64,000 bases of DNA from Mobula hypostoma (GCF_963921235.1 NC_086097.1:38938001-39002000), one strand, 5' to 3'; positions 614 to 60,757 are shown, counted from the first letter of the stretch. Notes: generated from the letters alone by a model not told the origin. Numbers and translations: made by a program.

Positions 614-818
614 TACCAAATAACACGTAAAAATACACAGCCGATATAAAGTAGAAATAATGCATGTACAGTGTAGTATCACTTGTAGTATCATTGGGAC
701 GACAGCGCTGAGCACACTGATGATGGTGTGTCAGGCTGAGTTGTCGCAGGTTGCGGTGGTGCAGTGGCCCCCACCCTCCAGGCCGCCAACCGATACATTG
801 CCACGAAGCATGCAGGGG

Positions 819-4639: not shown

Positions 4640-5300
4640 GGCTCTACGCAACTTCCGGCAAAGGTTAGGATTTTACTTTGTTTAAAATGAAGAATAATAT
4701 TTTAATCTCATATTCCAGAACACTTTACTTGCTTAAATTCACAAGCTCCTCTTGGTTGTTCAAATTTTTAATCCGGTTCTTCTCACAGATTTCTGTTTTT
4801 TTTTCCCCAGAGCGACGCTGGGAATTGTAGTTTCGGGCTCACAGTTGCGCCATACCAACCAGGATCTCAGAACTACACTCGCTAGCTGGAGCGCTCGATG
4901 ACATCGACGGGCAGCACCGCATCCGGATGGAGCGTCGATCGCCGCTCACCATGGAAGCGGTCCGCGGCGAGCCCTGCGTTGCGTTCACGTGACCTGTGTT
5001 TGCCTGGTTACGGCCATTTTGTTTCGAGCGGCCGCGTTTGGGCGCTGTGCGCGTGCGCGCGGGCGGAGGGACGGACGGACGGACGGACGGACGGGTGGAC
5101 GGACTCGGCTTGTTGTGAGGGACCGGCAGGCTGGGGGAGTGACAGAGCCGAGGGAATGTCAGATGCGAGCTAATTGTGCAGGAAGGCAAATGTCATAAAA
5201 ACGATTGGATGACGTCAGAGGGAAAAGTATGAAGCCCTGGAGACGGCGGCGTTTATGGTCGCGGACACTCGGCCGGGCGTCGCTTGTGGAGAAGTTTCAT
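4640..5300. promoter_or_regulatory. CpG-rich, probably bidirectional promoter of TOGARAM1
   Basis: Sharp rise in GC and CpG. ETS/GABPA ACTTCCGG 4651-4658; ZNF143/THAP11 motif AACTACAATTCCCAGC on the minus strand 4817-4832; E-box TCACGTGAC 4985-4993; YY1 CGGCCATTTT 5011-5020; NRF1-like TGCGCGTGCGCG 5048-5059; (GGAC)n at about 5068-5105; reverse CCAAT 5204-5208; CRE TGACGTCA 5210-5217. Confidence 0.8.
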
Positions 5301-7314
5301 GGCAGGTTCGGTCGTTAAGTGTCTTCCGCCGGTGTTTCAGTGTGAACAGAACAGCTACCAGAGTGGCGGTGACCGCGGAAAAGGCAGCGACGTGGGTGGC
5401 GGTGGCTCCTATACTCGGGATGGCGTGATGTCGGTGAGGAGGAACGGCAGCCCGGCGGCTGCAGCGCCTTCCAGCCCCACGCTTGACATGGAAGAGGATG
5501 CGATTCTTCGGCAACTCAACAGCCGGGCTTTGCTGAAACGCACCGAGGCACTCAAAGCACTGCGTGTCAGTGTGAGGCAGAATGCAGGCAGGTTGGTCTT
5601 TGCCAACAAGAAGGATCTTTTCTCGGCTTTGAACGAGGCGCTGGTGAACAGCAGAGGGGAGATCAAAGTGGTATGCATTCAGTTAATATCAGAAATCATT
5701 CAAGGGTCCGATTCAGACCTGGATTACTTTAGGTCTGCAGTGTTGCCCAACCTTATACGGAGTTTGCGGGATGACAGTCCTAATGTGCGTAATGAGCTCG
5801 TGCAGACTTTGCATGCTTATTTAAAATGCCCTAACATCGCTAAGGACGTTTTCTGGGCTTTGGTAGAGCATGGTCTGGAAAGCCAGGATGCTGCTGTTAG
5901 GAAAGCTGTGACCATTGTTTTACCCATCTTACTCACTAAGGAGTTCAAAAGTGACAATTTATTTGATGTAACCCTCTGTTTAGCTAAAAAACTAAATGAT
6001 GACAGTGTGGACGACTCATTATCAGCCTTTGACGCCATGGGGCATATAAAACATCATATTGGCGAAGAAGAATTCAACTCTTTCTTAAAACGGTTGCCAC
6101 TGACTCTTAGAAGAAATTATAACAAGTTACTGGAAATAAAATATGAGTCACTGTCCAAATTAAATGGAGATGCTGAACCTGAGCTCGAGTTAAGTAAGAA
6201 CTTTCGGACAAACTCAGGGTTTCGTGGAAGATCTATCAATAATGTTAAAGATGTTTCTCAATTTCCCAGACCAGTTTCCAAAGACTGTAGCAATCTAGAG
6301 TTTCAAATAATTCCACAGGAATTGTATGTTCGTCTTCTAGATCTGGAAGATTATAAGAGTAGAACACATGCTGTTGAAGAGCTGAAGACTGTTATTGAGG
6401 GCTTCAATTTTATGGCTCTGTCTTCTGCAGCTATTTTGAGTTTTGTTTGCTTTTTAAGTACTTTGCTTGATGATTCAAATTTTAAAGTTGTACATGGTAC
6501 TTTAGAAATCATCAACTTGCTGGTAGTTAAATTAAATCATGGTGTGATAAATTATCTCAAGCCCATTACATCTGCAACAGTAAAAGTGCTGGGTGACAAC
6601 AAGGTTGTCACAAAGCAGGAATATATGAAAGTCTTCATGGGCTTAATGAAGCAGATTCGTCCTCAAAAAATACTTGATATTTTGCTTGACAATATAAAAC
6701 ATAAAAATTCCAGAGTTAGGGAGGAAATATTAAATATTGTCATAGCTTCACTCTTGACTTTTCCAAGTGAAGACTTTGATTTGCCCAAGCTTTGTCACAT
6801 AATTGCTCCAACATTGACGGACTCCAAGAAAAAGGTTCGGCATGCTGCATTAGAGGCTTTTGCTGTTTTAGCTTCGTCTTTTGGTTCCAACAAGACGTCT
6901 TTGATTAAGGCAGTGGATGCTGTAGAACTACAGGATGATGGGGAGGGTGTAATGGCTGCAATACAAGCCAGACTATCAAGGCGAACTCTGCCAAAGTTAA
7001 CTCCTCAAGGACTTGTAGAGTACGCAATACCAATGCCGTCTTCTGCCCATGGTAGGGGAATGCATGTCCCATTAGGAGCTGATACTGAGTGGCTACTGGC
7101 TGGTGGAAGAACCCAGAGTGCTCATAGTTATCATGGTGATCATGAGCCTCATTCTCTGGGATCACCCAGCCCCAATTCGGATGAATATACCTCAATCAGA
7201 AGAGTATTAAGTGCTGGCCGAGGAAAGAACAAATTACCATGGGAGTGCAGGAACTCAACCTGCAGGGAAACTAGTCAGCAAACTAGGTTTTCCAACACTG
7301 CTCCTGCAGAACAG
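5299..7314 (+). CDS. TOGARAM1: TOGARAM1 coding exon 1 (TOG1 and TOG2 HEAT-repeat domains)
   Basis: 672 codons from the first in-frame ATG (upstream in-frame TGA at 5230). Recognisable TOG2 motifs LLDDSNFKVVHGTL, KHKNSRVREE, LLTFPSEDFDLPKL, DSKKKVRHAALEAFAVLAS and GADTEWLLAG, RVLSAGRGKNKLPWE. Ends CAG|GTAAGA in phase 0. The start could instead be ATG 5428 or 5488. Confidence 0.95.
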
Positions 7315-7443
7315 GTAAGAAATAATTTGGGAGTAATAACCCTAGTAATGCAATAAAGTTAAATACATTTGATATTATTTTGCACATAACAGTAAAACAT
7401 AATTCATAGTTTGTCTGCTCTTACTAATTAAGCTAATTGCAAG

Positions 7444-7976
7444 TGTAATGCCCTGGGAAAGGTTTCACTATTGTGGTTTCTCTGTAGTAGCAGGGTGTTT
7501 GGGTAGAGATAATAGGGGCTTTGGAATATGCAGTGTCCCATGAGGGGAGTGGTTTTCTTTCTTATGTGCCCAAGAGCGAGGGATTTGCGGGCTTTTATTC
7601 TGGAGAAGATGCCAGAACAGAGGAGTCGTACACTGCAGGACTGAGTGGACTTGGAATGGGATTGGGAGTCGACGATGCCCGGGGAAATCGATGGAGAACG
7701 AACAGATGAGAAAACAGTGAGCTCCAATGTGCGCATTAGACTGTTCCATGAAAATGGGCCCTTTTTGTTTTCTTTACTAACCCTATAGTCAAATTTTAAA
7801 ATTATAAAGCACAATTGTTTAATTACATATCGTGTACTGTCTGTTATTTCGAGGTACTGATTTGTAACAGGGGAACACATCACACAACATCCACCCAAAC
7901 AAGATTTCTCAAGTTTGGCCAGGCCGGAGGCCATCTTCCCCTAGATTAACACAGTTGGCCAAACCTGATGCTTACA
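7444..7976. mobile_element. Solo LTR (533 bp)
   Basis: TGTAATGC...GCTTACA termini with a perfect 4-bp target duplication CAAG (7440-7443 and 7977-7980). Confidence 0.7.
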
Positions 7977-8659
7977 CAAGCCAGTTTTAGATTGATGTAT
8001 GGTGATACTGAAAACATTTTTTTAATGAAGAAAAGGTTGCAGTTCTCCTTAAGTTGTGTACCCAAGGACACAACAGAATGCAGATACTAGCCGACACTGC
8101 AGGTCTTCAAATGAATCTTTACTGTGGAGGTTAATGAGTAGAAGTGTTTAAAATTAGTTTATTCTGAACAAATGCAATATTGCAACATAGTTTCATAGGT
8201 GATGTTGAGATCCTCTGTACATAATTGAAAGTGAATGCGGAATATTGAAACTTAATTTACAAGTGTAGCTGTAAGCTTTAAGCACTTTAAGGTACCAAAT
8301 ATGATCCATTACAAACTTAATTTTAAAAAGGTATTAAGTTATGTAGTGTTCATATCACTAAAATGTTACAGATTAGAAGTAACTAACAGAATTAAAGTAA
8401 AGGTTATGGGGGGGGAATAATCCTTTCTAAAAGAGGAGCTTTTGTAGGCAGTTAGCTTCTCGGCTAGGTATTTATTTTAATACACTGTCATAAGAGTTCT
8501 ATAATTTTGCATCCATTTCATGACCCATCTTGTTATCTTGAACTCCTTCATCAAAAGAGCCATCTTTTATGAAGTAAACAAACTATCTGTGTTAATTTGA
8601 TAGCAAACTAACTGGGTTGAAAATTTCCACAGTAAAGGAAGCAATTACTTTAATGAAAT

Positions 8660-8930: not shown

Positions 8931-10020
8931 TCCCATGTTCCTGCTGCCCTTGGCCAACTTGATGAAGGTATGTTATAATATCTTAAACTTGTACCAAGAA
9001 AAAAATTAATTAGCGTCTTTTGTGATCTGCTGATGAAAGATTCTGCTTTACTATACTTTTAATTGAATATACTTTTGAAACTGAATACTTGTAATGTCAG
9101 ACAATGAGGCAGGCCCTATACTTGCAGTATAAGACACCAAGGGGTTCTTAAGACTTTATGGTGTAAACACCAAAGACAAAAATAAAATTGAAGAGCTCAT
9201 TTTGCCATGGAGTAATAGCAGTATGTGGTCATTTTTTCCTACACATGAGTCTATCTAGAAGAACTCTTTATTGGAAGGTGATTGTAGAAATCAGTGATTG
9301 ATCACCCTTACATGGCTCTTTGATACATTAACAGTGAAAATGCTCTGGTGTCTCGGGTTTAAGAATCTGAAACAGATCATTTGTACACGTGAGCGTGACT
9401 ATAGTAATCTATCCTTTTTAATACTGCAAAATTGACAAAACCTATTGGGACTATCTTTGATAATTTGCTAATTTATATAAAAAGAAGGACCTTACATTAA
9501 TTATATTATTCCTAGTATTTGTTTGTGTGTGTAGCTTTAATTACATTTCCATCTATAATAAGTTTGGTGTATTATTTTTAAATGGAATTGCTTTGCAATT
9601 GAGTATTTTCTCTGGCTTGTAAGTTGTTGCCTCTGATGGAGGCATTTTGTTCTGTGCAGTTGTAGATGTAGATTTGGATCTAAGCAACACCAGCAGAATA
9701 CACAATCATTACTGTTATTTTGAATAATCAACTTCAGATTTGAGTGAGACGAGGAGTTTATTAAATACTAAATGTAATTGTTTACTAATTAAGCTTTTTT
9801 AAGTAGATTTGAATCTATAATATAAAATATTATTGCCTTGAGAATGTTCTGATTTTTCATATTTAGTTATCATCTCAGCTATGTTCTGCCTTTTACATAT
9901 TTTCTGCTTTGAAATGTATATTAGAACAGCGAAAACAGCATGTCTTCCCTGTATTTGTTTTGCAATAACTTTTTGCTTCAATTAGGAAGATGAATTTAAA
10001 AAAACTAGTAAGACATAATA

Positions 10021-10192
10021 ACAGACATCAAAGTTGCTGGTGAACACAGCAGGCCAGGCAGCATCGTCAGGGTGTCGGCCTGAAACGTCGACTGTACCTC
10101 TTCCTAGAGATGCTGCCTGGCCTGCTGCGTTCACCAGCAACTTTGATGTGTGTTGCTTGAATTTCCAGCATCTGCAGAATTCCTGTTGTTTG
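10021..10192. mobile_element. Penelope-like terminal repeat in inverted (hairpin) configuration
   Basis: 10021-10065 pairs with 10109-10153. The sequence matches the end of the GIY-YIG-bearing element at 25814 and the copies at 30402, 60547 and 63165. Confidence 0.75.
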
Positions 10193-11394: not shown

Positions 11395-12296
11395 TGTTAC
11401 GTACCCCGTAACTGGGTTGCCAAACCAGCAGAAATGGATCACTCAGTTGGAGTCTGGATTACTAGAACTAAGAAAGTTTTATTAAAGAAACAAGCAACAC
11501 AGTACTCTAATCAAAAGGATAATAAATGCAACAGTTCAGCAATGATAAACACACATGTACACAGAATTAAGATAACAGGATCAATCAAGCTCTATCGTTG
11601 TCTAGGGGTAAATGACCAGTTTCAAAGTGACGCAAAGTTCAGTTCAATTTAGTTCAGTTCAGTTCACCGGAATCACTGCCGTGGGAGATGGACAGTGGGG
11701 GGGCAGGAGAGAGAGAGCAAAACGAATGAATATTCAAACGGCTTCCACACAGACCTTCGACATTCTTCGCAGTCAGCTTTCGGACGAACCCTTTGTGATG
11801 TCATCTGAGGTCACCGACCGTGACCCCTCCGTTTCCAGATACGATCGTTTCTCTGCGGTGAACCTGGCACCCAGGCAAGGGCGGACACACACCAGGTTCC
11901 CACCGATCGTGCCTTTCCACCCTGTGCGTCTATGGCTTGGCCCCGCAACCAGCCTTCCAAAACTTCCCACCGACTTGTGGGAGACGCACCGCTTCCAGGG
12001 TCTCGTTACCTCGGGGTGTCGTGTGTGTGTTGCCTTAGCGAACCTGTCCCTTTTTATCCCCCTGCTGGGGTATCGCCTGTCCATCACTTCAAACAGTTCA
12101 GGGTTCAAAGGGGGAGCCGATCTTGACTGCTCTCCTTCCGTTACTCTCTCCCGTCCCTTCATTAACATCTCCAAATGCTGCTCCATTGTTTTCCTTATCT
12201 CTCTTTCTCCTGAAGACAGGTGGCAGACCAACTGCTGATCCCACTGGTGCCAGCCCAGGCCAGCTAACATCTTAATTTATGTGTATTCTCATCACA
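11395..12296 (-). repeat. 3' LTR of the Gmr1-like element
   Basis: Direct repeat of 15538-16439 with about 24 substitutions counted by eye over 902 bp. Minus-strand AATAAA at 11478-11483. Confidence 0.95.
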
Positions 12297-12551
12297 CTTC
12301 CCACCTTTAAGGATTTTTACCGGGGTAAAAATTACAAACATGAATACATTATTTGATACACACAAATATACATCTTTATCAGCTATTTGGCTAATACAGC
12401 GAATTTGAAGTTGTCTACACCTGACAGACAGTCAGCCATCACATTTTCTGTTCCTTTTATATGTGTTATTAATAATCCCTTAGACCAGGCTCCAACTTAG
12501 CAAACTTCATAGTGGCCAAAAACACTGATGAATTGCAATCAATGTAACCTC

Positions 12552-12923
12552 TCATTGGGTTTCATCCCAGACCACAATAACAAGGGTCGTCCCATTCCGA
12601 CTTAGTTTTCTCTCGCAAGGGCTTAGTAGGAGGGGGAGGGGTAGTAACCGCAGAGTTATTGCAAAACTTCCTACAGTACCCCACCATCTCCAAGAGCCTT
12701 CTGAGGGCCCTCTTGTCTGTCGGGGTTGGGATGTCAGAGATAGCACTTTAGCTTGCATCGCTGCCAGCTGCCCCTGTGTCACCACAATTCCCAGATAAGT
12801 GACCTTCGTGTGGTCGAACTCATTTTTTTCAAGGTTCACTATCAAGCTGGCTTCGGACAGCCGTATTACATCGCTAATACACACCTCTGTGTTCGTCAGC
12901 CCTTTCATCACTGAATTACTCAT
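12552..12923 (-). pseudogene. Decayed reverse transcriptase remnant
   Basis: MKGLTNTEVCISDVI...RLSEASLIVNLEKNEFDHTKVTYLG. The YIDD catalytic motif reads CISD and intervening segments are missing. Confidence 0.75.
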
Positions 12924-13025
12924 TCTATAGGGCTGTTGCTCACTAGGCTACCCTAGCGTAACAAACACCACCCAACGTCCCAGTTCTTTGCATCGCCTCG
13001 GGACAATCAAACACACGTGTGCGAG

Positions 13026-15438
13026 TCATTTAATTACTTCTCCTAAAGAGTCACTTTGTTCGGGGATTAAGGGAGAGGCCTTATCAGCAGAACTGGCCAA
13101 AACAATAGCCTTCTCCCATCTGGTCGATACCATACTCATCTCTTCAAAATGTTTTTTTTTTCTTATCAGGGAGACCCTAGCTTCATTGATTTCCGCGCTA
13201 ACACCGACTAGGTTTGTTAGCGTATCAAAAGCCTGTGACCGTCTCAGTTTGCGTCTGCCATGATTGATAACATCCTTCCTCCTGGGCAGCTGGTAAACCT
13301 CTTTCATGATTCCACCAACTGTTTCCTCCAGCACTGCAAAATGTCCACCGGGGGGTACCTTGTGGGCCAGGTTAAAAATCTCATCCCCATAACTCTTTTG
13401 CACCACCCCCCATTCCTCATCTGTGGGTACGGTACTTGGTTTCCCTTTCTTCCTTAGCACTTCCTCCTCCACACAATAGCCTACTGGTTCCCTTGTTAAT
13501 TCTGCATCAGAGGGAGCTGTCTCCGCCAAAACCATCAGCCCCTCGTCTTGCTCCTGCGCCTGCACAAATTCTTTCCTGACTAATGCTAAGTCTGTCTCAG
13601 CTCCCTCACTACCTCTTGTTTCACTACACTCCTTCTTTTCACTTTCTACCCCCTTCTCGTACAAGGCTGGCAGAAATGTCTCAGCTAAATTTACTACCGC
13701 AGTCCCGTAATGAACCTGTGAGTCCATGGGCGGGGCCTCAATGCTGGCAGGCTGACCTGTCAATCTCGCTGCTGGGAACACGATTCCCCCGGCGAGGTCA
13801 TTACCGAGCAAGACTTCCATGTCTTTCATCGGTAATTCGGCCCTCACCCCGATCGTGACTAGTCCAGAGACCAGGTTGCTTTGTAAGTGTATCTGGTGCA
13901 AAGGGACTGCCTCTGTCCCTTCCCCAATACCTTTGACCTTGACCTCCCCAGTCTGGGTCTCTGAGCTAAATTCTAATACACTCTTCAGTATCAGTGACTG
14001 ACACGCTCCCGTGTCTCTCCAGATCCGCACTGGAACTGGTTTTAACCCCTCCTTCACTGACACCAATCCGGCCGAGATAAACCTCTCGCGCCCTTCCTGA
14101 ACTTTGGCAGACCTGTCCCCTCCTAGCGGTTCGTTTACCAGCTCGATACAGCCAGTCAAAATCGCCGTTTTTCCTTTTCCCGTCTCCTTCTTTGGGGCAA
14201 AGCACCTGGACGCAAAGTGTCCGACTTTCCCGCAATTATAACAGATGACCCCAGGAGGCTTCCTACCAGACTGCTCCCGGTCTACCTTATCCTTCTCACT
14301 AGTCCCCGGCTTACTTTCTGACTTTTCTGGCGGACTCTCCCCGCCGTCTTGACTACCCTTCTGGTAGCCTTTACTCGGGGCAAACTTCATTTTATGCGTC
14401 AACGCATACTCATCCGCTAACTTAGCAGTTGCGGCTAACATGGCTGCCTCTTTCTCATCTAGGTAGGGTCTCATACCCTCAGGGACACAACCTTTAAACT
14501 GCTCAATCAGGATCAGCTGTAGCAGTCTGTTATAATCCCCGTCTACCCCCTTCGAGGCGCACCAACGCTCACAATATGTCTGCATCTCACGGGTAAACTT
14601 TAAATACGTGCGGTCCCACTAATTCCTCGCATTCCGGAACCTCTGCCGGTATGCCTCCGGGACCAACTCATAAATCCTGAGGATGGCCTCTTTCACCACC
14701 TCATATCTCTGGGCATCTTCCGCGGACAAAGCTGAGTAAGCTTGTTGGGCTTTCCCTTTCAGTACACTCTGAAGCAAAACAGCCCACTTATCCCTCGGCC
14801 AGTCCTGACTTGTAGCCACTTTTTCGAAATGGAGAAAGTACCGATCCACGTCGGTATCGTCAAATGGGGGAACCAGCCTAACCTCCTGGGTCGCCTGGAA
14901 CCCTCCACCTTGGTTCGGCACGGGCCCCTGCTCTGCCCTTATCTTTAACTTCTCCAGCTTGAATTCCCTTTCCCTCTGTTTCTCCTCTCGCTCCGTCTGT
15001 CTGTCTGTCTGTCTCTGTGTCTGTGTCTCTCTCTCTCTCTCTCTCTCTCTCCTGCCTTTCTAACTCTTTCTCTTTCTCCTGCCTTTCTAACTCTTTCTCT
15101 TTCTCCCGCCTTTCTAACTCTCTCTCCTGCCTTTCTAACTGCTTCTCTTCGTGTTCTAACTGCCGTACCCGGAACTCGTGCTCGAGTCTCAGTTTTTCAA
15201 GCTGCACCTGTACTGCGTCTCCAGCAGGTTTTTCAATAGACACCACCTCCAGCTCCCCTTGGGGAAACACACCTTTAGATACATAGTGCTCTACGATAGC
15301 TCTGTGTATCTCCTCTCTCCTCATTGTTGACTTCCCCTTAGCAAGATTCAGCCGTTTGGCCACAGCTACCAATTCCGCTTTCCTGGCATCCTCTAATGCC
15401 TCCAAGGTCGGCGCCTTTATAAATTCCTCAGCCTCCAT
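13026..15438 (-). pseudogene. Gag(SCAN, CCHC)-protease ORF of the Gmr1-like element, disrupted
   Basis: Three ORF pieces: 15438 (coiled coil), 14921-14619 (PPFDDTDVDRYFLHFEKVA...ELVPEAYRQRFR) and 14585-13026 (LILIEQF, AKLADEY, CYNCGKVGHFASRC, IWRDTGACQSLI, LAHKVPPGGHF). They are separated by a microsatellite frameshift near 15000-15050 and an in-frame TAG at 14619-14621. Confidence 0.88.
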
Positions 15439-15537
15439 TTCTGCTGTTTGTCTTTTCTTTCTTTCGGGAATTTTAACCCAATCAATTTACTCCGTCCCAA
15501 ATTTAGCGTTCAAAATTGTGGACGAGAACCCCACTTA

Positions 15538-16439
15538 TGTTACGTACCCTGTAACTGGGTTGCCAAACCAGCAGAAATGGATCACTCAGTTGGAGTCTGG
15601 ATTATTAGAACTAAGAAAGTTTTATTAAAGAAACAAGCAACACAGTACTCTAATCAAAAGGATAGTAAATACAACAGTTCAGCAATGATAAACACACATG
15701 TACACAGAATTAAGATAACAGGATCAATCAAGCTCTATCGTTGTCGAGGGGTAAATGACCAGTTTCAAAGTGACGCAAAGTTCAGTTCAATTTAGTTCAG
15801 TTCAGTTCGCAGTAATCGCTGCCGTGGGAGATGGACAGTGGGGGGGAAGGAGAGAGAGAGCAAAACGAATGAATATTCAAACGGCTTCCACACAGACCTT
15901 CGACATTCCTCGCAGTCAGCTTTCGGGCGAGCCCTTTGTGATGTCATCTGAGGTCACCGACTGTGACCCCTCCGTTTCCAGATACGATCGTTTCTCTGCG
16001 GTGAACCTGGCACCCAGGCAAGGGCGGACACACACCAGGTTCCCGCCGATCGTGCCTTTCCACCCTGTGCATCTATGGCTTGGTCCCGCAACCAGCCTTC
16101 CAAAACTTCCCACTGACTTGTGGGAAACGCACCGCTTCCAGGGTCTCGTTACTTCGGGGTGTCGTGTGTGTGTTGCCTTAGCGAACCTGTCCCTTTTTAT
16201 CCCCCTGCTGGGATATCGCCTGTCCATCACTTCAAACAGTTCAGGGTTCAAAGGGGGAGCCAATCTTGACTGCTCTCCTTCCGTTACTCTCTCCCGTCCC
16301 TTCATTAACATCTCCAAATGCTACTCCATTGTTTTCCTTATCTCTCTTTCTCCTGAAGACAGGTGGCAGACCAACTGCTGATCCCACTGGTGCCAGCCCA
16401 GGCCAGCTAACATCTTAATTTATGTGTATTCTCGTCACA
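15538..16439 (-). repeat. 5' LTR of the Gmr1-like element
   Basis: Direct repeat of 11395-12296, adjacent to the PBS. Confidence 0.95.
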
Positions 16440-17324: not shown

Positions 17325-18705
17325 TGTTATAGTTGCGTGCAAACGCGCTACTAAAGAAACACATGGAGGCAGAGAGAGCTGAACTCAGAATGCCTTTACT
17401 GATTCAAAATCACGCACTTAAGTCTCCCCTCCCATGGGCCCCTGCGACCCACGGGGCAGGGGTGACGTCAGACTGTCCCCAGAAGGTCCGCCTCGAGTGG
17501 GTAGTTCCAAACGCGCTACCACGTGTCTGCCTGCGGCTCCCGATGGCGGTTCGAGTCCCGCGTGTGCGGGCCGCCACACCACCCCCTCCCCAGAAACGTC
17601 CATTAGGGGAGTGGAGCCCCCAGTCTGTGTGGCTTGCCTGGGTGGCCGGCCTCGCTGGCGCGGTGTGGGTACCCTCACTGGTTGCTGAATGTCCAAGTGC
17701 ACCGGTTTGAGGCAGTCCACTGTAAAGGTCTCTTCCCGGCCACCCACCTCCACGACACACGTGGTTCCGTTGTGCCGGATCACCTCGAAGGGTCCCTCGT
17801 ACGGCCACTGTAGAGGTGACCTGTGCATGCCCCTGCGAATAAAAACATACTCACAGTCTCGGAGGTCTTCAGGGATGAAGGATGGCGTGGGACCATGTCT
17901 GGAAGTTGGGACCAGTGCCAGGGTCCCTACCTTGTCCTGCAGCCTCATTAGCGCCGCTGCTGGAGTTTCTTCCGGACCTCGAGCCTCTGGTACGAACTCG
18001 CCTGGGACCGTCGGGGGCGCTATAGACCAATTCTACCGAGGTGTCCAGGGCCCCCTTGGGGGCTGTGCGGGTGCCCAGTAGGACCCAGGGAAGCTCATCT
18101 GTCCAGTTGGGGCCCCTGAGGCGCGCCTTCAGGGCCGACTTGAGATGCCGGTGGATTCGCTCTACCAAACCGTTGGACTGGGGATGGTACACTGTGGTGT
18201 GATGCAGCTAAGTGCCCAGGAGCTGCGCCAGTGCTGTCCACAAACTAGACGTGAATTGCACCCCTCTGTCGGAGGTGATGTCCGTTGGGAGGCCAAACCC
18301 GGCGATCCAGTTTGCAATGAGCGTCCTGGCGCAGGTCTCAGTGGACGTGTCTGCGAGCGGTACGGCTTCCGGCCACCTGGTGAACCTGTCTACCATGGTA
18401 AAGATATACCTGGCGCCCCGGGAGACTGGCAGGGGGCCAACGATGTCCACATAGATGTGTTGGAACCTCCTGTGCGTCGGCTGGAACTGCTGGAGGGGAG
18501 CCTTCACATGCCACTGGACTTTGGTGGTCTGGCAGTGTACGCAGGTCCTGGCCCAGTGTCCGACCTGTTTGCGCAAACAGTGCCAGATGACTCTGCTACC
18601 AGCTTGATGGACGCCCGGATGGACGAGTGGGCCAGGTCGTGCAGCGTGTTGAACACCCGGTGCCTCCATGCTGCTGGTACCACGGGTCGGGGTTCTCCCC
18701 ACAAT
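17325..18705 (-). mobile_element. Ty3/Gypsy LTR retrotransposon 3' fragment (integrase, PPT and a 3' LTR of about 254 bp)
   Basis: HHCC (LHDLAH...CVHCQ) and DDE core (VDIVGPLP, MVDRFTRWPEA, TSDRGVQF, YHPQSNGLVER) in frameshifted pieces. Minus-strand PPT GGGGAGGGGGTGG at 17579-17591. LTR at about 17325-17578. No 5' LTR, gag or RT. Confidence 0.9.
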
Positions 18706-19760
18706 ATACATGTATGGATTTTGACGTGTGTGAATTGAATAATTGCTTATCAGTAAGGACAGTAAAGATGAAAACAATTAGACAAAGGCCAGTAACATTT
18801 TTTACCAATCTCTTGCACTCACAATTTAGCAGCTTGCAATTTGTTCAATGTCATTTAACAGGTAAAGAATTGTAAACCATGATAAAGTAACTGTACAATT
18901 GTCAGAATTGTCTTTTGGAATGTGAAAATAGGATAGTTGTATTGAATCCACCCACTGACATGAACTTTTGATAGAAAGTTGCATATTTGTGAAATAGTGA
19001 GTTAATAAGTTTGGTCTAAGGAGATCTGTACAAATAATACTGAAGTAATTAATAAAGTTTATTTAAATTCAGTGAGCACAATTTTGATTGATCAAATTAT
19101 ATAAAATTTATTTGGCCTGCAGATTTGTTCGAGCCAAAGGATACATTTTATTTTTATTACATCAATGTGAATTGAACAGTAAAACCAGAAGATTTCTAAT
19201 TCTAAAAATAATTTTGCCATCACTGATGGTACTGTTATTGTGCAGCAAGAATTAGACTAGTTAAAATAATTAATCATGAAATAAAAAAAATACTGGAAGT
19301 GCTGAGCATGTAAGGTAGCATCAGTGAACGCAGAGAGAAATGGATTCTGTTAAAGAACCTTCATCAGAGTTATTATTATAGTCTTGTATGGAGAATTCAT
19401 TTTCTAAAATAGCCTACAGTGATCCTATATTCTCCATTCTTCTGTTTCCTTCTACCAGACTATCTCCTGGATGTAACCTACATTTTTTTTGTTATTTGTA
19501 AAAATTCTGTCAGTGTCATTATCAGCAATATGTTGCAAGGTTATGATTGAGCTATCCCAGCAGTGTAAAATGAATCCCATTTTGCAAACTTCCCTACTTT
19601 GAAGTTTCTATTTTGAAGTGACAGATCTGCTTGGTAAACTTTTGATCATGTAAGGAGAGAAATATATTAAATCTTCAGAAGTAAGCTCAGGTTGTATATT
19701 GGACATCTGACACATTAACTGGCTATTTTCAATTATAGTGTAATTTTTTTCTTCAAACTA

Positions 19761-20801
19761 TAGTGGATTCAGGTTAATTGGGACACATCGAGACGAGTAC
19801 ATTTTGGCTCAATTAAGCGGCTGCCCAAATCAGCTGAACTTTCATGGAAATAGTTAAAAAGGTATTAAAAAAGACAAACTACCATTCAGCTGAGTAACAA
19901 ATTATATATTTAAATGAAATACAGAACAAATGAGAGCCTTATCAATACCACTACAGTATGATAAATTTGTGTATTGGTTCCTAGCACTTATTGATGGTAT
20001 GTTGCCCTGTTCTTTTGATTGAATGTAAATGAACAAAATCACCTAGTGCAGATAATGGAATACCTTCATACAATTCCTTCGATGATTGCATCATGCGAAT
20101 CTTCATTTCCATTGCAACATTCAAGATAATTGTTGATACCTTCAGATTCTTCGTAGTTCCTAACTTGTTGAAATAGTTTCTGGCATTTCCAAACCTGAAT
20201 GCTTGAAACTGCTGTGAGCAAAACAATTCTAAATTCTTACTCCTTGTGTCTTACTGCTTATTTCTCATCAGAAGTAAGCAGGAAGACAATTCAGAAATGT
20301 TTTACTCAGTGTGGTTTCAACCATTCAGGCTTAAAGACGCCAGAAACAGCTGGGAGTGAAAATGAAATGATTTCACTTCTTCAACAAGTTAGGAACTGCA
20401 AAGAATCTGAAGGTATCGACAATCATCATGAACGTTATGATGAAAATAAAGATTTAGATCCTGCAGTAGTTTATGTCATTGTGTGAAGGCAGTCCATTAT
20501 TTACACTAGGTGTCTGTGCTGATTTTATTCATTTAATAGTTGATCAAAAGAACACAGCAGTGTACAGGTGCCCTGGATGAAATTCTCTAGCTTTGATAAC
20601 AAATAGGAGCTAATAAACAGTTTTATAGTCCTGTGGTATTATTGACAGCTTTCTAATTTGTTCTGTATTTCATTTACGTACATAAGTTGTTACTCAGTTT
20701 GTCTTTTTTTAAATGTACCTTTTTAACTATTTCCATGAAAATTCAGCTAATTAGGCCAAAATGTACAGGTCCTGATTTGTCACATTAACTGAGACCCACT
20801 G
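19761..20801. mobile_element. Degraded fold-back Tigger-like DNA transposon
   Basis: Ends TA|TAGTGGATTCAGGTTAATT...ATTAACTGAGACCCACTG. About 19761-20175 is the imperfect reverse complement of about 20375-20801. A central remnant VSRKTIQKCFTQCGF resembles the Tigger DDE C-terminal motif. Confidence 0.7.
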
Positions 20802-25399: not shown

Positions 25400-26985
25400 A
25401 GTTACAAAGAAGACATGTCAGTGCCTATATGTCATTAGGAGCAAATTTTAAAATATACACATTCTGCAGATGAGCTGTGGAGAGCATTCTGCATCACTGT
25501 CTGCTATGGAGGGGCCACAGCACAGGATTAGAAAAATCTGCAGAGGGTTGCAATCTCAGCCAGCTCCACCATGGGCATGAGACTCCCCAGTGTTGAGGAC
25601 ATCTTCAAAATGCAATGCCTCTAAAACGCAGCATCTATCATTTGGGACTCCAATCACCCAGGGCATGCCTTCTTCTCATTGCTGCCATCAGGGAGGAAAT
25701 ACAGGAGCCTGAAGACACACACTCAATGTTTTAGGAACAGTGTTTTCCACTCTACCATCAAATTTCTGAACGGAAGGTGAACCAACTATTGAATACTACC
25801 TCACTATTTTTGCAACACACACAAAATGCTGGTGGAATGCAGCAGGCCAGGCAGCATCTATAGGAAGAGGTAGAGTCGACGTTTTGGGCCGAGACCCTTT
25901 ATCAGGACTAACTGAAAGAAGAGATAGTAAGAGATTTGAGAGGGGGGGGAGGGGGAGGAATGGAGCTAAGAGTTGGAAAGTTGATTGGCAAAAGGGATAC
26001 ATGGCTGGAGAAGGGAGAGGATCATGGGACGGGAGGCCTAGGGAAAAAGAAAGGGAGAGGGGAGCATCAGAGGAAGATATAGTGAGAGGGACAGGGAGAA
26101 AAAAAGAGAAAGAAAGGGGAAAAATAAACAAATAAGGGATGGGGTAAGAAGGGGAGGAGGGGCATTAACAGAAGTTAGAGAAGTCAGAGTTCATGCCATC
26201 AGGTTGGAGGCTATTCAGACGGAATATAAGGTGTTGTTCCTCCAACCTGAGTGTGGCTTCATCTTGACAGTAGAGGAGGCCATGGATGGACATATCAGAA
26301 TGGGAATGGGACGTGGAATTAATATGTGTGGCCACTAGGAGATCCTGCTTTCTCTGGCGGACAGAGCGTAGGTGTTCAGCGAAATGGTCTCCCAGTCTGC
26401 GTCAGGTCTCACCAGTATATAGAAGGCCAGACCGGGAGCAGCGGACGCAGTATATCACACCAGCCGACTCACAGGTGAAGTGTTGCCTCACCTGGAAGGA
26501 CTGTCTTGGGCCGTGAATGGTGGTGAGGGAGGAAGTGTAAGGGCATGTGTAGCACTTGTTCCGCATACAAGAATAAGTGCCAGGAGGGAGATTGGTGGGA
26601 AAGGATGAGGGAGACGAATGGACAAGGGAGTCGCATAGGGAGCGATCCCTGCGGAAAGCAGAAAGAGGGGGAGGGAAAGATGTGCTTGGTGGTGGGATCC
26701 CGTTGGAAGTGGCGGAAGTTACAGAGAATTATATGTTGGACCCGGAGGCTGGTGGAGTAGTAGGTGAGGACAAGGGGAACCCTATCCCTAGTGGGGTGGT
26801 GGGAGGATGGGGTGAGAACAGATGTACATGAAATGGGAGAGATATTTTTGCTCTCATTTTGCACTTATTTTTTAAATTTATATTTCTTTTTATAGTTTAT
26901 AGTATTTCTATGTATTGCTTTGTACTACTGCCGCAAAGCAATAAATTTCATGACATATGTCAGTGATATTAAACCTGATTCACAT
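25400..26985 (+). mobile_element. Rex1/Babar LINE 3' end, interrupted by a Penelope element
   Basis: RT C-terminal remnants (ITVCYGG, HPGHAFFSLLPSGRKYRSL) at 25400-25800. The 3' UTR resumes after 26851 and ends ...GATATTAAACCTGATTC. Confidence 0.65.
25814..26842 (-). mobile_element. Penelope-like retroelement 3' part (GIY-YIG endonuclease)
   Basis: Minus strand RDRVPLVLTY...FQRDPTTKHIFP...FTCESAGVIYCVRCSRSGLLYTGET, flanked by a 9-bp duplication TATTTTTGC (25805-25813 and 26843-26851). Confidence 0.85.
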
Positions 26986-30401: not shown

Positions 30402-30538
30402 GGTCCTGACGAAGGGTCTCGGCCTGAAACATCGACTGTACCTCTTCCTAGAGATGCTGCCAGGCCTGCTGTGTTCACCAGCAACTTTGATGTGTGTTGC
30501 TTGAATTTCCAGCATCTGCAGTGTTCCTGTTGTTTGTT
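30402..30538. mobile_element. Penelope terminal-repeat fragment within a Rex1-like 3' remnant (about 30290-30705)
   Basis: GTCCTGACGAAGGGTCTCGGCCTGAAAC...CAGCATCTGCAG, matching the other copies. Confidence 0.7.
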
Positions 30539-51360: not shown

Positions 51361-51772
51361 TTGGTGATGTGGCTGATATAATTTAGACTGCTGGCAGATC
51401 TGGGAAGAACTCACTCCAGATATTTTTTTGTATGATTATAGTTTGTACACAGTAATCTCAAAAGAACATGATCTAAAAACTGCATTCGCAAAGCTATCCA
51501 TACTTTGAGAATAATTTTACTCAATCCTAAAGTACTTAGAGAAGTTTTTAAAATGTATTCATCTTATTGCTATAATTTCCCTTAATTTCTTATCTTTTTA
51601 TATGTTTTTAATTTTAGTTCACTTATCTTTTCTAAATTTTAATTGGACAAATAATCATCCACCTGGCCTAACATTTTGTTTTTAACTTGGACAAATAATG
51701 CTTAATTATAGCTTAAATGTTTTCATTGATCTTTTAAATTTCTTGATTTGATGTTTGTTTTAATTTCTACAG

Positions 51773-51867
51773 TTCTGATGGGTGTGTAGAGGTAGGATCT
51801 AAAGCCTGCCATGGTCGAATGCCATCAGAAAAGTCCAAGTCTTCAGGTGAATACAATTCCAGCTCAG
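51773..51867 (+). CDS. TOGARAM1: TOGARAM1 exon 7
   Basis: ttttaatttctacag|T TCT GAT...TCA G|gtactg; 95 nt, phase 2 to 1, which bridges exons 6 and 8. An alternative in-frame donor lies after 51846. Confidence 0.75.
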
Positions 51868-51928
51868 GTACTGCTGTCTGTATTTATTTTCTCCTAAGGA
51901 AATCATAAGCAAGCCAAAAGTGATTTTA

Positions 51929-51972
51929 TACACAGGCACACACACACGCGCGCACACACGCACACACACGCG

Positions 51973-52041
<69 letters not shown>

Positions 52042-52045
52042 GCAC
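51929..52045. repeat. (CA)n/(CG)n microsatellite
   Basis: Directly visible; it abuts the left end of the Tc1. Confidence 0.95.
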
Positions 52046-55000
52046 GCACCCCTGGTCAAAATTTCGGTTACTGTGAATAGCTTAGCGAGTAAAAGATGAA
52101 CTGTGATCATCTGTGGTCACTGTGGTTCCAGTGATCATAACACCATTAGTTTCAATTTGATCATGGACAAGGATAGATCTGGTCCTAGGGTTGAGGTTCT
52201 GAACTGGAAGAAGGCCAAATTTGAAGAAATGAGAAAGGATCTAAAAAGCGTGGATTGGGACAGGTTGTTCTCTGGCAGAGATGTGATTGGTAGGTGGGAA
52301 GCCTTCAAAGGGGAAATTTTGAGAGTGCAGAGTTTGTATGTTCCTGTCAGGATTAAAGGCAAATTGAATAGGAATAAGGAACCTTGGTTCTCAAGGGATA
52401 TTGCAACTCTGATAAAGAAGAAGAGGGAGTTGTATGAAATGTATAGGAAACAGGGGGTAAATCAGGTGCTTGAGGAGTATAAGAAGTGCAAGAAAATACT
52501 TAAGAAAGAAATCAGAAGGGCAAAAAGAAGACATGAGGTTGCCTTGGCAGTCAAAGTGAAGGATAATCCAAAGAGCTTTTACAAGTATATTAAGAGCAGA
52601 AGGATTGTAAGGGATAAAATTAGTCCTCTTGAAGATCAGAGTGGTCGGCTTTGTGCGGAACCAAAGGAAATGGGGGAGATCTTAAATAGGTTTTTTGCGT
52701 CTGTATTTACTAAGGAAGCTGGCATGAAATCTATGGAATTGAGGGAATCAAGTAGTGAGACCATGGAAACTGTACAGATTGAAAAGGAGGAGGTGCTTGC
52801 TGTCTTGAGGAAAATTAAAGTGGATAAATCCCTGGGACCTGACAGAGTGTTCCCTCGGACCTTGAAGGAGACTAGTGTTGAAATTGCGGGGGCCCTGGCA
52901 GAAATATTTAAAATGTCGCTGTCTATGGGTGAAGTGCCGGAGGATTGGAGAGTGGCTCATGTTGTTCCGTTGTTTAAAAAAGGATCGAAAAGTAATCTGG
53001 GAAATTATAGGCCGGTGAGTTTAACGTCAGTAGTAGTTAAGTTATTGGAGGGAGTACTAAGAGACAGAATCTACAAGCATTTGGATAGACGGGCTTATTA
53101 GGGAGAGTCAACATGGCTTTGTGCGTGGTAGGTCATGTTTGACCAATCTGTTGAAGTTTTTCGAGGAGGTTACCAGGAAAGTGGATGAAGGGAAGGCAGT
53201 GGATGTTGTCTACATGGACTTCAGTAAGGCCTTTGACAAGGTCCCACATGGGAGGTTAGTTAGGAAAATTCAGTCGCTAGGTATACATGGAGAGGTGGTA
53301 AATTGGATTAGACATTGGCTCAATGGAAGAAGCCAGAGAGTGGTGGTAGAGAATTGCTTCTCTGAGTGGAGGCCTGTGACTAGTGGTGTGCCACAGGGAT
53401 CAGTGCTGGGTCCATTGTTATTTCTCATCTATATCAATGATCTGGATGATAATGTGGTAAATTGGATCAGCAAGTTTGCTGATGATACAAAGATTGGAGG
53501 TGTAGTAGACAGTGAGGAAGGTTTTCAGAGCCTGCAGAGGGACTTGGACCAGCTGGAAAAATGGGCTGAAAAATGGCAGATGGAGTTTAATACTGACAAG
53601 TGTGAGGTATTGCACGTTGGAAGGACAAACCAACGTAGAACATACAGGGTTAATGGTAAGGCACTGAGGAGTGCAGTGGAACAGAGGGATCTGGGAATAC
53701 AGATACAAAATTCCCTAAAAATGTCGTCACAGGTAGATAGGGTCGTAAAGAGAGCTTGTGGTACATTGGCCTTTATTAATCGAAGTATTGAGTATAAGAG
53801 CTGGAATGTTATGATGAGGTTGTATAAGGCATTGGTGAGGCCGAATCTGGAGTATTGTGTTCAGTTTTGGTCACCAAATTACAGGAAGGATATAAATAAG
53901 GTTGAAAGAGTGCAGAGAAGGTTTACAAGGATGTTGCCGGGACTTGAGAAACTCAGTTACAGAGAAAGGTTGAATAGGTTAGGACTTTATTCCCTGGAGC
54001 GTAGAAGAATGAGGGGAGATTTGATAGAGGTATATAAAATTATGATGGGTATAGATAGAGTGAATGCAAGCAGGCTTTTTCCACTGAGGCAAGGGGAGAA
54101 AAAAAACCAGAGGACATGGGTTAAGGGTGAGGGGGGAAAAGTTTAAAGGGAACATTAGGTGGGGCTTCTTCACACAGAGAGTGGTGGGAGTATGGAATGA
54201 GCTGCCAGACGAGGTGGTAAATGCGGGTTCTTTTTTAACATTTAAGAATAAATTGGACAGATACATGGATGGGAGGTGTATGGAGGGATATGGTCCGTGT
54301 GCAGGTCAGTGGGACTAGGCAGAAAATGGTTCGGCACAGCCAAGAAGGGCCAAAGGGCCTGTTTCTGTGCTGTAGTTTCTATGGTTCTATGATTTCCAAA
54401 AGGCATAAAGTTAAAGATGACACATTTCTTTAATTTTTTAAGCAGCACTACTTTCTTTATTTCCATCTTTTACAGTTTCAAAATAACAAAAAAGGAAAAG
54501 GGTCCGAAGCAGAAGTTTGGGCACCCTGCATGGCAGTACGTAGTAACACCCCCTTTGGCAAGTGTCACAGCTTGTAAATGCTTTTTGTCGCCAGCTCAGA
54601 GTCTTTCAATTCTTGTTTGGGGGATTTTTGCCCATTCTTCCTTGCAAAAGGCTTCTAGTTCTGTGAGATTCTTGGGCTCTCTTGCATGCACTGTTCTTCT
54701 GAGGTCTATCCACAGATTCTCGATGATGTTTAGGTCGGGGACTGTGAGGGCCATGGCAAAACCTTCAGCTTGAGCCTCTTGAGGTAGTCCATTGTGGATT
54801 TTGAGGTGTTTAGGTTCATTATCCTGTTGTAGAAGCCATCCTCTTTTCATCTTTGGCTTTTTTTTTGTTTTACAGACGGTGTGATGTTTGCTTTCAGAAT
54901 TTTCTGGTATTTAATTGAATTCATTCTTCCCTCTACCAGTAAATGTTCCCCGTGCCACTGGCTGCAACACAAGCCCAAAGCATGATCGATCCACCCCCAT

Positions 55001-55936
55001 GCTTAACAGGTGGATAGGGATTCTTTTCATGAAATTCTGCACCCTTTTTTCTCCAAACATACCTTTGCTCATTGTGGCCAAAAAGTTCTATTTTAACTTC
55101 ATCAGTCCACAGTCCAAAATGCATCAGGCTTGTTTAGATGTTCCTTTGAACCTTTTGAATAGAACTTTTTGGCTGCAATGAGCAAAGGTATGTTTGGAGA
55201 AAAAAGGGTGCAGAATTTCATGAAAAGAACCCCTATCCACCTGTTAAGCAGGGGGTGTGGATCGATCATGCTTTGGGCTTGTGTTGCAGCCAGTGGCATG
55301 GGGGACATTTACTGGTAAGAGGGAAGAATGAATTCAATTAAATACCAGCAAATTCTGGAAGCAAACATCACACCGTCTGTAAAACAAAAAAAAAGCCGAA
55401 GATGAAAAGAGGATGGCTTCTACAACAGGATAATGAACCTAAACACACCTCAAAATCCACAATGGACTACCTCAAGAGGTGCAAGCTGAAGGTTTTACCA
55501 TGGCCCTCACAGTCCCCTGACCTAAACATCATCGAGAATCTGTGGATAGACCTCAAAAGAGCAGTGCATGCAAGATGGCCCAAGAATCTCACAGAACTAG
55601 AAGCCTTTTGCAAGGAAAAACGGGCAAAAATCCTCCAAATAAGAATTGAAAGACTTAGCTGGCTACAAAAAGCGTTTACAAGCTGTGATACTTGTCAAAG
55701 GGGGTGTTACTAAGTACTGCCATGCAGGGTGCTCAAACTTTTGCTTCGGGCCCGTTTGTTTTTTTTGTTATTTTGAAACTGTAAAAGATGGAAATAAAAA
55801 AAGTTTTCTTGCTTAAATTATTAATGTGTCATCTTTAGCTTCATGCCTTTTGGAAATCAGTTCATCTTTTACTCGCTTAGCTATTCGCAGTAACAGAAAT
55901 TTTGACCAGGGGTGCCCAAACTTTTGCATATCACTG
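52046..55936. mobile_element. Tc1-family (IR/DR type) fold-back element, left TIR split by a CR1
   Basis: Right end ...CCCAAACTTTTGCATATCACTG|TA. The left TIR lies at 52046-52103 and resumes at 54390. Tc1 motifs (KHGGGSIMLW, QQDNEPKH, WPSQSPDLNIIENLW) occur on both strands. Confidence 0.9.
52104..54389 (+). mobile_element. CR1 LINE, 5'-truncated and relatively young
   Basis: Long ORFs 52103-53101 and 53121-54146 (SSDHN, GNYRPVSLTS, YMDFSKAFDKV, SGVPQGSVLGP, KFADDTK) with few frameshifts, and a TTCTATGGTTCTA tail. Confidence 0.95.
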
Positions 55937-56144
55937 TATAATTTATTTTTTTTAATAAAAGGTATAATGATGTTGTTACTCTACCACTTCATTCATTTCA
56001 AGAATGACTGCAAGTGATTCAGAAAACTAACATTTAATGATTTTGTGTATTTGGCTCATTTGTTCACTTTTATGGGTTCTTTAGAAACTTGAACCCTGTA
56101 CTTAGTCTAACTCACTTGTAAGGTCCAGATTGGGCATTCATTTT

Positions 56145-56840
56145 GCAGTGTGAAGAAAGCACAGCAGTGCCCCTATTTCCTTAGAAGTTTGCAAAAATTC
56201 AGCATCTAAAACTATGACAAACTTCTATAGATGTGTAGTGCAGAGTATATTGATTGGTTACATTATGACCTGGTATGGAAACAACAATGCACTTGAAAGG
56301 AAAATCCTACAAAAGGTAATGGATAGGCCCAGTCCATTACGGGTAAAGCTCTCCTCACCTTTGAGCACATCTACAAGGACCGCTGTCGCAGGAAAGCAAC
56401 ATCCTCATATCAGCAACCCCCACCATCCAGGCCACGCTCTCTTCTTGCTGCTGCCATCAAAGTGGTCATATAGGAATTCAGGCCTCACACACCAGGTTCA
56501 GGAGCAGTTATTACTCCTCAACCATCAGGCTCTTGAACCAGAGGGGTAACTTCACTCAACTTCACTTGCCCCATTACTGAGCTGTTCCCACACACTATAG
56601 ATTCGCTTTCAGTAACTCTTCATCTTGTGTTCTTGATATTGCTCATTTCTTTATGACTATATTTTCTCTGTCTTTGTACTTGCGTAGTCTGTTGTCCTTT
56701 GCAAATGGGTTGTTGTTGGGTGTGGCCTTTGATTGTATTTGTTTCTTGGATTTACTGTATATGCCCACAAGGAAACAAATCTCAGGGTTATATATGGTAG
56801 CATACACAGTGTGCACTTCGATAATAAGTTTACTTTGTAC
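56145..56840 (+). mobile_element. Rex1/Babar LINE 3' fragment
   Basis: TNFYRCVVQSILIGYIMTWYGN...HPGHALFLLLPS. Confidence 0.7.
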
Positions 56841-57503
56841 TTTTTGTCACGCTCTATTGTAGCTTATGCATTATAAAACTGGACACACAAGCATGGCATG
56901 CAATCCACACTTTTCCTTTGTCTGCCAAATTGATCAGTTTGCACCCTCCAAATCCTACTTGCCAGTTTTTGGTCTGTGGATCTTAAGTGGTGTTATAAAT
57001 GCAATAAAGGTCCCTACAGTCCTTCCAGGCAGTAGGCTCCAGAGCAAACATCCAGCTGAGATGAGCTCTCTAATTCTTCTGATGAAAGTATTGCCATTGG
57101 AAAGATGAGTCTTCCATGAATAATGACTGTAATGGCCATTCATACCAGTGAGGATTGGGTTATTTATTGCTGGACCTCTTCACCACCTAATAAAATCCAA
57201 GTATGACAGGTTTTTTAAGAATTAAGTTCTTGGACTGTGCTATTGGTACGTGACAACTCTCTTGTTATTAAATTGTCTTCTCTTGATTCTTATATATAAT
57301 GCATCCTTGTGATTGGTTTCCAATCTGAATTCTTTGAAGAATGGATCACATTATCCTGTGGGATATTTTGAATTCCGATAGATACGACTAGATGCGTTTG
57401 TAAGAAAGGGGAAAAGTTTTTTTTTAAAAATAACATGGAATGAAAGTGGAGTTCAAAGATATCCACACCTATGAGTACTTTTTCTTTCAAAAACAAAATA
57501 CAG

Positions 57504-57677
57504 GAATGACTTTCCACGATAGAAACACCTCTGATGTGAGTATTGTTGGACAACGCATGACTTATGGAAATGGAATGCCATATTTTGAAGAGGAGAAACA
57601 AAATGAAATATTTCATGTTGGCTCTAAATTACATTCCAGAGAGCCTCAAAAAAGTACTAGTAATAAACCTGCAAAAG
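57504..57677 (+). CDS. TOGARAM1: TOGARAM1 exon 8 (possible cassette exon)
   Basis: aaatacag|GA...AAA G|gtaagt; 174 nt, phase 1 to 1, open in the correct frame. Confidence 0.7.
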
Positions 57678-57926
57678 GTAAGTATTATTGTTTATTCAAA
57701 ATACTTTTCACACAAATCCATAGCTGTATAACTGTTCATATACTTTAAGTATCTCCAAGTATTGATGCAACAAAGATATTCGTGTTAATCTATTGAAGTC
57801 CATAATGACAATATTATTTGTGTTATTAGAGCACAAAAGTCACATTTTGGATTATGGAAGTAGTAGCCACATTGTTTATCCATTCAAATTGTGTCCTTTT
57901 AACCGACTGTGTGTGTGGGTTGACAG

Positions 57927-60546: not shown

Positions 60547-60757
60547 ACACATAAAAGTTGCTGGTGAACGCAGCAGGCCAGGCAGCATCTCTAGGAAGAG
60601 GTGCAGTCGACGTTTCAGGCCGAGTCCTGACGAAGGGTCTCAGTCTGAAACGTCAACTGCACCTCTTCCTAGAGATGCTGCCTGGCCTGCTGCGTTCACC
60701 AACAACTTTTATGTGTGTTGCTTGAATTTCCAGCATCTGCAGAATTCCTGTTGTTTA
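60547..60757. mobile_element. Penelope terminal repeat, inverted pair
   Basis: About 60547-60624 pairs with about 60641-60719. Confidence 0.8.

Follow-up and report, generated by a model that had tools for sequence, protein, structure and literature searches.

This locus raises the question of how a Tc1 transposon came to consist of two inverted copies of the 3' half of its transposase gene, and what such a fold-back means for the gene in which it lies. The window, i.e., the whole 64-kb stretch of Mobula hypostoma DNA that was analysed, contains TOGARAM1. A long open reading frame (5233-7356) matches Mobula birostris TOGARAM1 (P0001) with 99% identity, and tblastn with P0001 yields 13 exons on the plus strand of the window. 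The whole fold-back element reaches from about 52046 to 55936 and is placed between exon 7 and exon 8 of P0001, which agrees with the location in TOGARAM1 intron 7 given in a preliminary description of this DNA (numbering by coding exons). No Rfam match was obtained within 51800-57500. The features of the locus are:

51765..51846, plus strand: TOGARAM1 coding exon 7 (tblastn of P0001, 96%, match 51765-51848); intron 7 starts with the GT at 51847.
51937..52049, no strand: (CA)n / (CG)n microsatellite, which by comparison with the right end occupies the place of the outer ~20 nt of the left terminal inverted repeat (TIR) and its TA.
52046..52103, minus strand: what is left of the outer part of the left TIR, with 95% complementarity to 55858-55915.
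52104..54389, plus strand: CR1-like LINE, 5'-truncated, inserted in the left TIR (RVT_1, E=6e-29).
54390..54535, minus strand: left TIR, inner portion, which includes the inner direct repeat (54509-54526).
54536..55148, minus strand: left transposase half including spacer sequence, aa about 135-340, with several frameshifts and one stop; 182/202 aligned codons identical to the transposase P0225.
55093..55157, minus strand: unpaired spacer (loop) of 65 nt, in which the left copy carries on through WTDE and HLNKPDAFW, with an 8-nt deletion at 55112/55113.
55149..55157, no strand: junction, which may be two more decayed parent codons or filler templated from 55162-55171.
55158..55717, plus strand: right transposase half, aa 157-340, frameshifted; 162/183 aligned codons identical to P0225 (DDE_3, E=1.6e-10).
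55718..55936, plus strand: right TIR of the IR/DR type, complete, about 215 nt, with direct repeats at 55727-55744 and 55910-55927; beyond it, depth drops to flank level.
55937..55938, no strand: TA target dinucleotide at the right end, read from the sequence.
57488..57679, plus strand: TOGARAM1 coding exon 8 (tblastn of P0001).

A repeat search recovered the two inverted arms that had been described before (54390-55092 and 55158-55860, separated by the 65-nt spacer) as a series of segments running from 54390-54426/55823-55859 on the outside inward to 54995-55092/55158-55255. The outer pairing proposed for 52046-52103 was found as well, with 55858-55915 as its partner. Once the LINE is removed, the left arm joins up unbroken against the reverse complement of the right arm. 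The self-comparison of the arms that the preliminary description had called for was done on the left arm without the LINE (stretch 52103 to 54392 removed). Of the 765 alignment columns obtained, 709 match, 43 differ by a substitution and 13 contain a gap, which is 94.3% identity between the arms and a divergence of 5.9% (Jukes-Cantor). The central 551 nt are predicted to fold with -436 kcal/mol (shuffle mean -141.5; z = -38.6), and none of 100 shuffles folded as well; over 1473 nt the predicted fold reaches -1210 kcal/mol.

The arms are halves in the literal sense. The left arm and spacer together cover aa about 133-340 of the 340-aa transposases P0225/P0127, and P0127 has no match below aa 133 anywhere in the 64-kb window, so that the earlier statement that the 5' half of the gene is absent holds. 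Three other statements had to be corrected in part. The spacer does continue the left copy through WTDE, but runs past it to about aa 135; its 8-nt deletion at 55112/55113 is one that the family lacks. Both arms do carry C-terminal transposase halves, but the motifs are not all intact in each arm, being scattered over the reading frames by frameshifts. Finally, only the right arm has a complete TIR, whereas the left one is split by the LINE and has lost its outer ~20 nt to the (CA)n array, and neither insert is mentioned in the preliminary description.

An IR/DR-type TIR is expected to measure about 200-250 nt and to contain an inner and an outer direct repeat. The right end shows this arrangement and the left end has a truncated outer repeat. 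Within each arm, about 215 nt therefore correspond to the natural TIR and about 550 nt are the product of the rearrangement. The TA target site can be read at the right end only, since the left end is replaced by the (CA)n array, so that the element may have formed in place or jumped in. With its left end and the outer direct repeat destroyed, the element is presumably immobile now. The 2.29-kb LINE in the left TIR, which is CR1-like by its protein matches, has ends that are ambiguous by 2 nt and showed no clear target duplication. Its best protein matches are bird and turtle RT proteins (~55%) and one further protein at 91%.

The nearest intact transposases, P0127 and P0225, both have 340 aa. 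In P0127 the catalytic residues are D153, D244 and E279, with the D-E spacing of 34 that characterizes DD34E transposases; both P0127 and P0225 are of this type, contain an HTH_SB domain and match SB100X (5CR4) with E=3e-80. P0225 is 84% identical to a transposase of Monopterus albus. Both arms retain D244 and E279, while D153 occurs once, within the spacer. As both arms correspond to the C-terminal half of P0225/P0127, one end of the element has been replaced by the other in inverted form. The intact 340-aa frame of an autonomous Tc1 is missing, with aa 1-132 absent and both arms frameshifted. The element is almost certainly a dead fold-back Tc1.

The Tc1 family to which it belongs is clearly very abundant. 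Summed contig depth on the element, which is no copy number, is 2.0e5-1.1e6 in run X1 and 1.1e5-5.8e5 in run X5; in six flanking bins the depth is 26-38 (X1) and 9-17 (X5). For ray genomes, a mean TcMar content of 2.30% is given in PMC12361510. The raw-read runs X21 and X22 were uninformative, with 16 and 4 partial reads that came almost exclusively from the TIR tip. These comparisons covered 4 of 24 candidate runs; among the others, organisms C-F contain 0.40-0.51 of the sequence words, and the 6 RNA runs, which are metagenome contigs, contain 0.07-0.13. When P0127 was compared with metagenomes, 80 distant loci retained from 563 matches reached at most 68% identity in their best segment and included no parent DNA, and at none of these 80 loci did transposase matches lie on both strands.

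The differences between the arms comprise 29 transitions and 14 transversions, and among the transitions those giving G-U pairs in the sense RNA outnumber those giving A-C by 22 to 7 (p=0.008, post hoc; 21 to 7 when tallied from the 765-column alignment). On the sense strand, C>T changes amount to 14/306 and G>A changes to 3/319, a skew that is seen in each of the two arms. Plain symmetric drift does not predict this G-U excess, which may be due to chance or to G-T repair in a DNA hairpin of the antisense strand. Selection for RNA pairing was rejected: it should have removed transversions and indels too, yet these persist and are not depleted. The LTR pair in intron 1, taken as a control, differs by 20 transitions and 4 transversions (20:4), compared with 29:14 between the arms. 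A transcription-linked strand bias as the cause is unsupported by the LINE in the same intron, where nonsynonymous changes alone, roughly polarised against 5 reference proteins, amount to 12/359 for G>A, 3/122 for C>T, 3/470 for A>G and 1/281 for T>C. The older fold-back of intron 1 has a G-U to A-C ratio of 21:18 (difference from 22:7, p=0.078), and the G+T content of the intron is only 0.524. Should many other fold-backs show a similar A-C deficit, this would suggest that hairpins of DNA in transcribed genes undergo strand-specific repair.

The changes that the two arms have in common bear on the origin of the element. Compared with P0225/P0127, both carry T181P, S182Y, T184P, L233S, D246E and R324K, a -1 frameshift around codon 207 as well as 8 additional nt at codons 230-233; a 1-nt loss at the stop codon is apparently common to both as well. 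Among the 34 listed of 48 variable sites of the right arm, 18 changes are restricted to that arm, 11 are common to both arms and 5 are three-state or gap sites. Two of the common substitutions are nearly private: at 55235 and 55240, another letter accounts for at least 99.4% of the family depth in both X1 and X5. The depth without the family letter at these two sites (645 and 832, respectively, in X1) lies within the range of 24-8098 at 11 hand-picked, near-fixed changes of the right arm alone that served as controls. The common C at 55385 has a depth of at most about 1% of that at a neighbouring site. In contrast, five common states (55231, 55397, 55437, 55626 and 55668) are held by 26-39% of the X1 family depth and therefore mark a subfamily.

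Because frameshifts and two substitutions almost absent from the family are common to the arms, both arms appear to have been copied from one already dead copy, or to have been partly homogenised later. Only 2 near-private common substitutions stand against 43 later ones, so that the rearrangement would fall early in the life of the copy, when transposase was likely still present. Such common dead mutations give a rare look at the order of events, with decay first and inversion second.

We consider it rather probable that the fold-back arose by a template switch and has no selected function. Template switching during gap repair or replication had been proposed in the preliminary description, and it is indirectly supported by the changes common to the arms and by the published model for the Goblin element, in which a switch from the left to the right TIR during gap repair is followed by end joining (PMC3814204). 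The template would have been an already frameshifted copy of the abundant Sleeping Beauty-like Tc1 family, as the common changes suggest. On the Goblin model, a related transposase would have excised a copy, and the left broken end would have invaded the right TIR of the template during gap repair. The 3' half would then have been copied inward from both ends until synthesis stopped at codons ~135 and 157 and the ends were joined. Gap repair of this type explains the private changes common to both arms. Afterwards the arms drifted by about 3% each, the left TIR received the CR1-like LINE, and the tip of this TIR gave way to a microsatellite; the products of all these events are present, but their order may have been different. 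Speaking against this origin, the junction has no clear microhomology (at most 1 nt, deduced from the protein), unlike the 6 bp of Goblin. The near repeat beside it (55148-55157 vs 55162-55171, 9/10 nt identical) may be templated filler.

Compatible with this template switch is the possibility that the element belongs to a large, amplified subfamily of fold-backs resembling long-TIR MITEs, its near-private common changes having been spread by conversion between the arms through a DNA hairpin. We regard this as possible, though clearly the less probable reading. The five common states at 26-39% of the X1 family depth could reflect such a subfamily, and no loose end lies near the junction among those listed (six per run, with 628 further ones), the contigs of such a family being short. 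Conversion would also fit the arm divergence, which is lower for coding sequence (25/563) than for the TIR (18/195; p=0.019), but an AT-rich, indel-prone stretch inflates the divergence of the TIR; G-T repair in an antisense-strand hairpin would in turn fit the A-C deficit. Against amplification stand the two common substitutions, which reach no more than 0.6% in the family, and the C at 55385 at no more than about 1% of its neighbour. In addition, 42% of the depth in both runs has another letter at 55861, and if this site marks the 5' TIR of the parent, most family copies would have a normal 5' end. The near-private changes argue for a small lineage, whereas the states at 26-39% leave room for a large one.

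An unlikely origin is that proposed for Rpmar17/49 (PMC4678618), in which a daughter copy lands, inverted, next to the parent element and both 5' parts are then lost by deletion. A recent daughter would also carry the private changes of the parent, and the lack of clear microhomology at the junction suits such a deletion. However, two events are needed instead of one, and no remaining 5' sequence is present in the window.

With a template switch as the preferred origin, the second question concerns the RNA. Transcription of TOGARAM1 would produce a transient intronic hairpin of ~700 bp, which ADAR would probably edit and which would be broken down together with the intron, serving no selected function. 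In silico, the pre-mRNA is predicted to form the long, near-perfect intramolecular duplex with a short loop that is expected of an ADAR substrate. Passive editing is likely wherever TOGARAM1 is expressed, because the duplex can form in the pre-mRNA and because a self-folding Harbinger repeat is described as the most edited family in the frog (PMC5625713). As a long substrate of ADAR, the fold-back would lend itself to a first study of RNA editing in rays.

A more far-reaching idea is that of a vertebrate 'Tc1 killer', an intronic hairpin that is diced to endo-siRNA, or feeds piRNA production, and silences the parent family in trans; its endo-siRNA version, likened to Mu killer, had been put forward in the preliminary description. 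We consider this very improbable. It would draw on a near-perfect ~700-bp duplex of transposase-coding sequence with a short loop in a transcribed gene, on a rearrangement that took place while the family was probably mobile (2 near-private common against 43 later substitutions), on the G-U excess of the sense strand, and on precedents described for maize in Mu killer (PMC3440606) and in composite insertions of Ac/Ds (bioRxiv 10.1101/2020.01.07.897926). But the undepleted transversions and indels make the G-U excess unlike pairing selection, and ordinary family members already bear inverted repeats of about 215 nt. Dicer is reported to be inefficient on long dsRNA in mouse cells, and mammalian Dicer to yield few siRNAs from long dsRNA outside mouse oocytes; rays have not been studied in this respect (PMC6391682). 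For Mu killer itself, one study disputes the read-through hairpin model (PMC3440606). The idea found no support here, as there is no sign of pairing selection and the window holds four further fold-backs (819-1053, 10020-10154, 19762-20800 and 60547-60716). Fold-backs are common in this window. The one at 19762-20800 seems to derive from a pogo/Tigger-type DNA transposon (3/11 protein matches with DDE_1).

That the fold-back, alone or as ~1/3 of the family, started family silencing by making hairpin RNA from host introns is just as improbable. If true, Mu killer would have a natural counterpart among vertebrates, born of a repair error of the transposon itself. A literature search on Tc1 snap-back RNA returned nothing relevant among the 3 papers listed. 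Locus-specific small RNAs, only if they exist, would bear on how vertebrates first recognize DNA transposons.

Perfect palindromes are a known long-read artefact, and no contig from the runs covers the whole stretch, but an origin of this inversion in assembly or in fold-back reads has a negligible probability, because artefact arms would be identical, whereas 43 substitutions and 13 gap columns separate these two, of which the left one alone is split by a 2.3-kb LINE, and the right TIR tip meets the same flank in two organisms. An X1 contig (55913-56160), which may stem from the organism of the window itself, shows 0 differences and a contig of X5, from another organism, shows 3 (55911-56158), with only 24-26 letters of these contigs on the TIR side (threshold 31 letters). 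The insertion is thus likely common to both organisms. Since their flank difference of 3/248 (95% interval 0.25-3.5%) is lower than the arm divergence, the fold-back is probably older than the split between the X1 and X5 organisms.

The architecture is already published for Tc1/mariner elements of insects, namely Rpmar17/49 of Rhodnius and Goblin of Aedes. A literature search found no ray or fish example of such a rearrangement, which is weak evidence of absence. Like the element described here, Rpmar17/49 of Rhodnius prolixus are non-autonomous Tc1/mariner elements with the 3' part in place of the 5' part and very long TIRs with transposase homology, but they are DD34D mariners that measure about 920-970 bp and exist in 13 and 140-227 independent copies (PMC4678618). 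The ray element is a vertebrate DD34E IR/DR Tc1 that measures about 1.6 kb, has arms about 760 nt long and is described here from a single locus; at least two independent insertions of the rearranged structure are needed to name a MITE lineage. In the Goblin MITE of Aedes aegypti, too, both sides of the junction come from the right end of the parent and have unequal lengths; there, they derive from the right subterminal region and meet at a 6-bp microhomology (PMC3814204), whereas here each arm has more than 180 transposase codons and at most 1 nt of microhomology would be present. The Drosophila MITEs Dromar7, 11, 28 and 36 likewise have long TIRs in which one end is an inverted copy of the other, but with the 5' part replacing the 3' part (7 sublineages), the reverse of the situation in the ray (PMC4161770).

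With Sleeping Beauty and other IR/DR Tc1 elements of fish, the fold-back has in common a parent with HTH_SB and DD34E and a ~215-nt TIR with two direct repeats; it differs from them by lacking the DNA-binding half and an open frame and by having only one whole end. Palindromic Harbinger repeats of Xenopus tropicalis are also self-folding derivatives of a DNA transposon that form tight dsRNA in vertebrate transcripts; they are about 200 bp long and hyper-edited (PMC5625713), whereas the ray element is longer and a candidate for editing. In Mu killer and the Ac/Ds composites, part of the transposase gene is present twice, in inverted orientation, with a copy of one and the same TIR at either end, and transcription of a host gene may read through it (PMC3440606; bioRxiv 10.1101/2020.01.07.897926); the ray element has this structure with 3' instead of 5' halves. 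In Mu killer, the 5' ~1.3 kb and TIRA are duplicated, and the locus is defined by dominant silencing (PMC3440606), in a plant host with a dedicated siRNA-methylation pathway. The rearrangement described for mariner/Tc1 elements of insects is thereby extended to a Tc1 of a cartilaginous fish, with unusually long arms.

The window holds a second DNA-transposon fold-back, which lies in intron 1 of TOGARAM1 and is older than the Tc1 fold-back of intron 7. It is listed here with further repeats noted in the window.

819-1053: small fold-back, arms of 104 nt
10020-10154: small fold-back, arms of 46 nt
11395-16439, minus strand: LTR element in intron 1, LTRs of 902 nt, 97.3% identical
18208-18777: integrase fragment beyond the LTR element
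19762-20800: older DNA-transposon fold-back in intron 1, about 410 nt in each arm, with 83% similarity between the arms and about 207 nt in the loop
52104-54389, sense orientation: CR1-like LINE in the left TIR of the Tc1 fold-back
60547-60716: small fold-back, arms of 81 nt

Within the older fold-back a 95-aa frame at 20199-20486 gave 11 protein matches, three of them with DDE_1 (pogo/Tigger type). Because this frame matches DDE_1 proteins, the older fold-back, like the intron 7 element, may also have been built from 3' parts.

Between the arms of the Tc1 fold-back (54390-55915), read on the sense strand, 22 mismatches are of the G-U type vs. 7 of the A-C type (p=0.008, post hoc), and transversions are not depleted. 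This bias was absent from both controls, the CR1-like LINE and the older fold-back. At two positions where the two arms are identical the Tc1 family depth carries another letter in both sequencing runs, which come from different organisms (42% of the depth at 55861 and 30% at 55748). These positions may mark the 5' TIR of the parent, and if so, the variants could serve as a handle for counting fold-back copies.

The CR1-like LINE retains long open frames of 333 and 361 aa separated by one frameshift, and no clear target duplication was found around it. In the LTR element one frame has SCAN and zinc-knuckle matches, and no reverse transcriptase frame of at least 100 aa was seen between the LTRs. 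The arms of the three small fold-backs are 94-96% alike; the one at 60547-60716 is flanked by a 13-nt direct repeat, with one copy near 60533 and the other near 60757, and akin pieces lie at 25812-25908 and 30403-30536.

Next to a distant Tc1-like transposase on a metagenome contig a 612-nt stretch (L005:4151-4753) is self-inverted at 77%. In a comparison involving proteins P0127, P0225 and P0129, the parent-like transposase shares 84% identity with a transposase of the bony fish Monopterus albus, a possible case of horizontal transfer.
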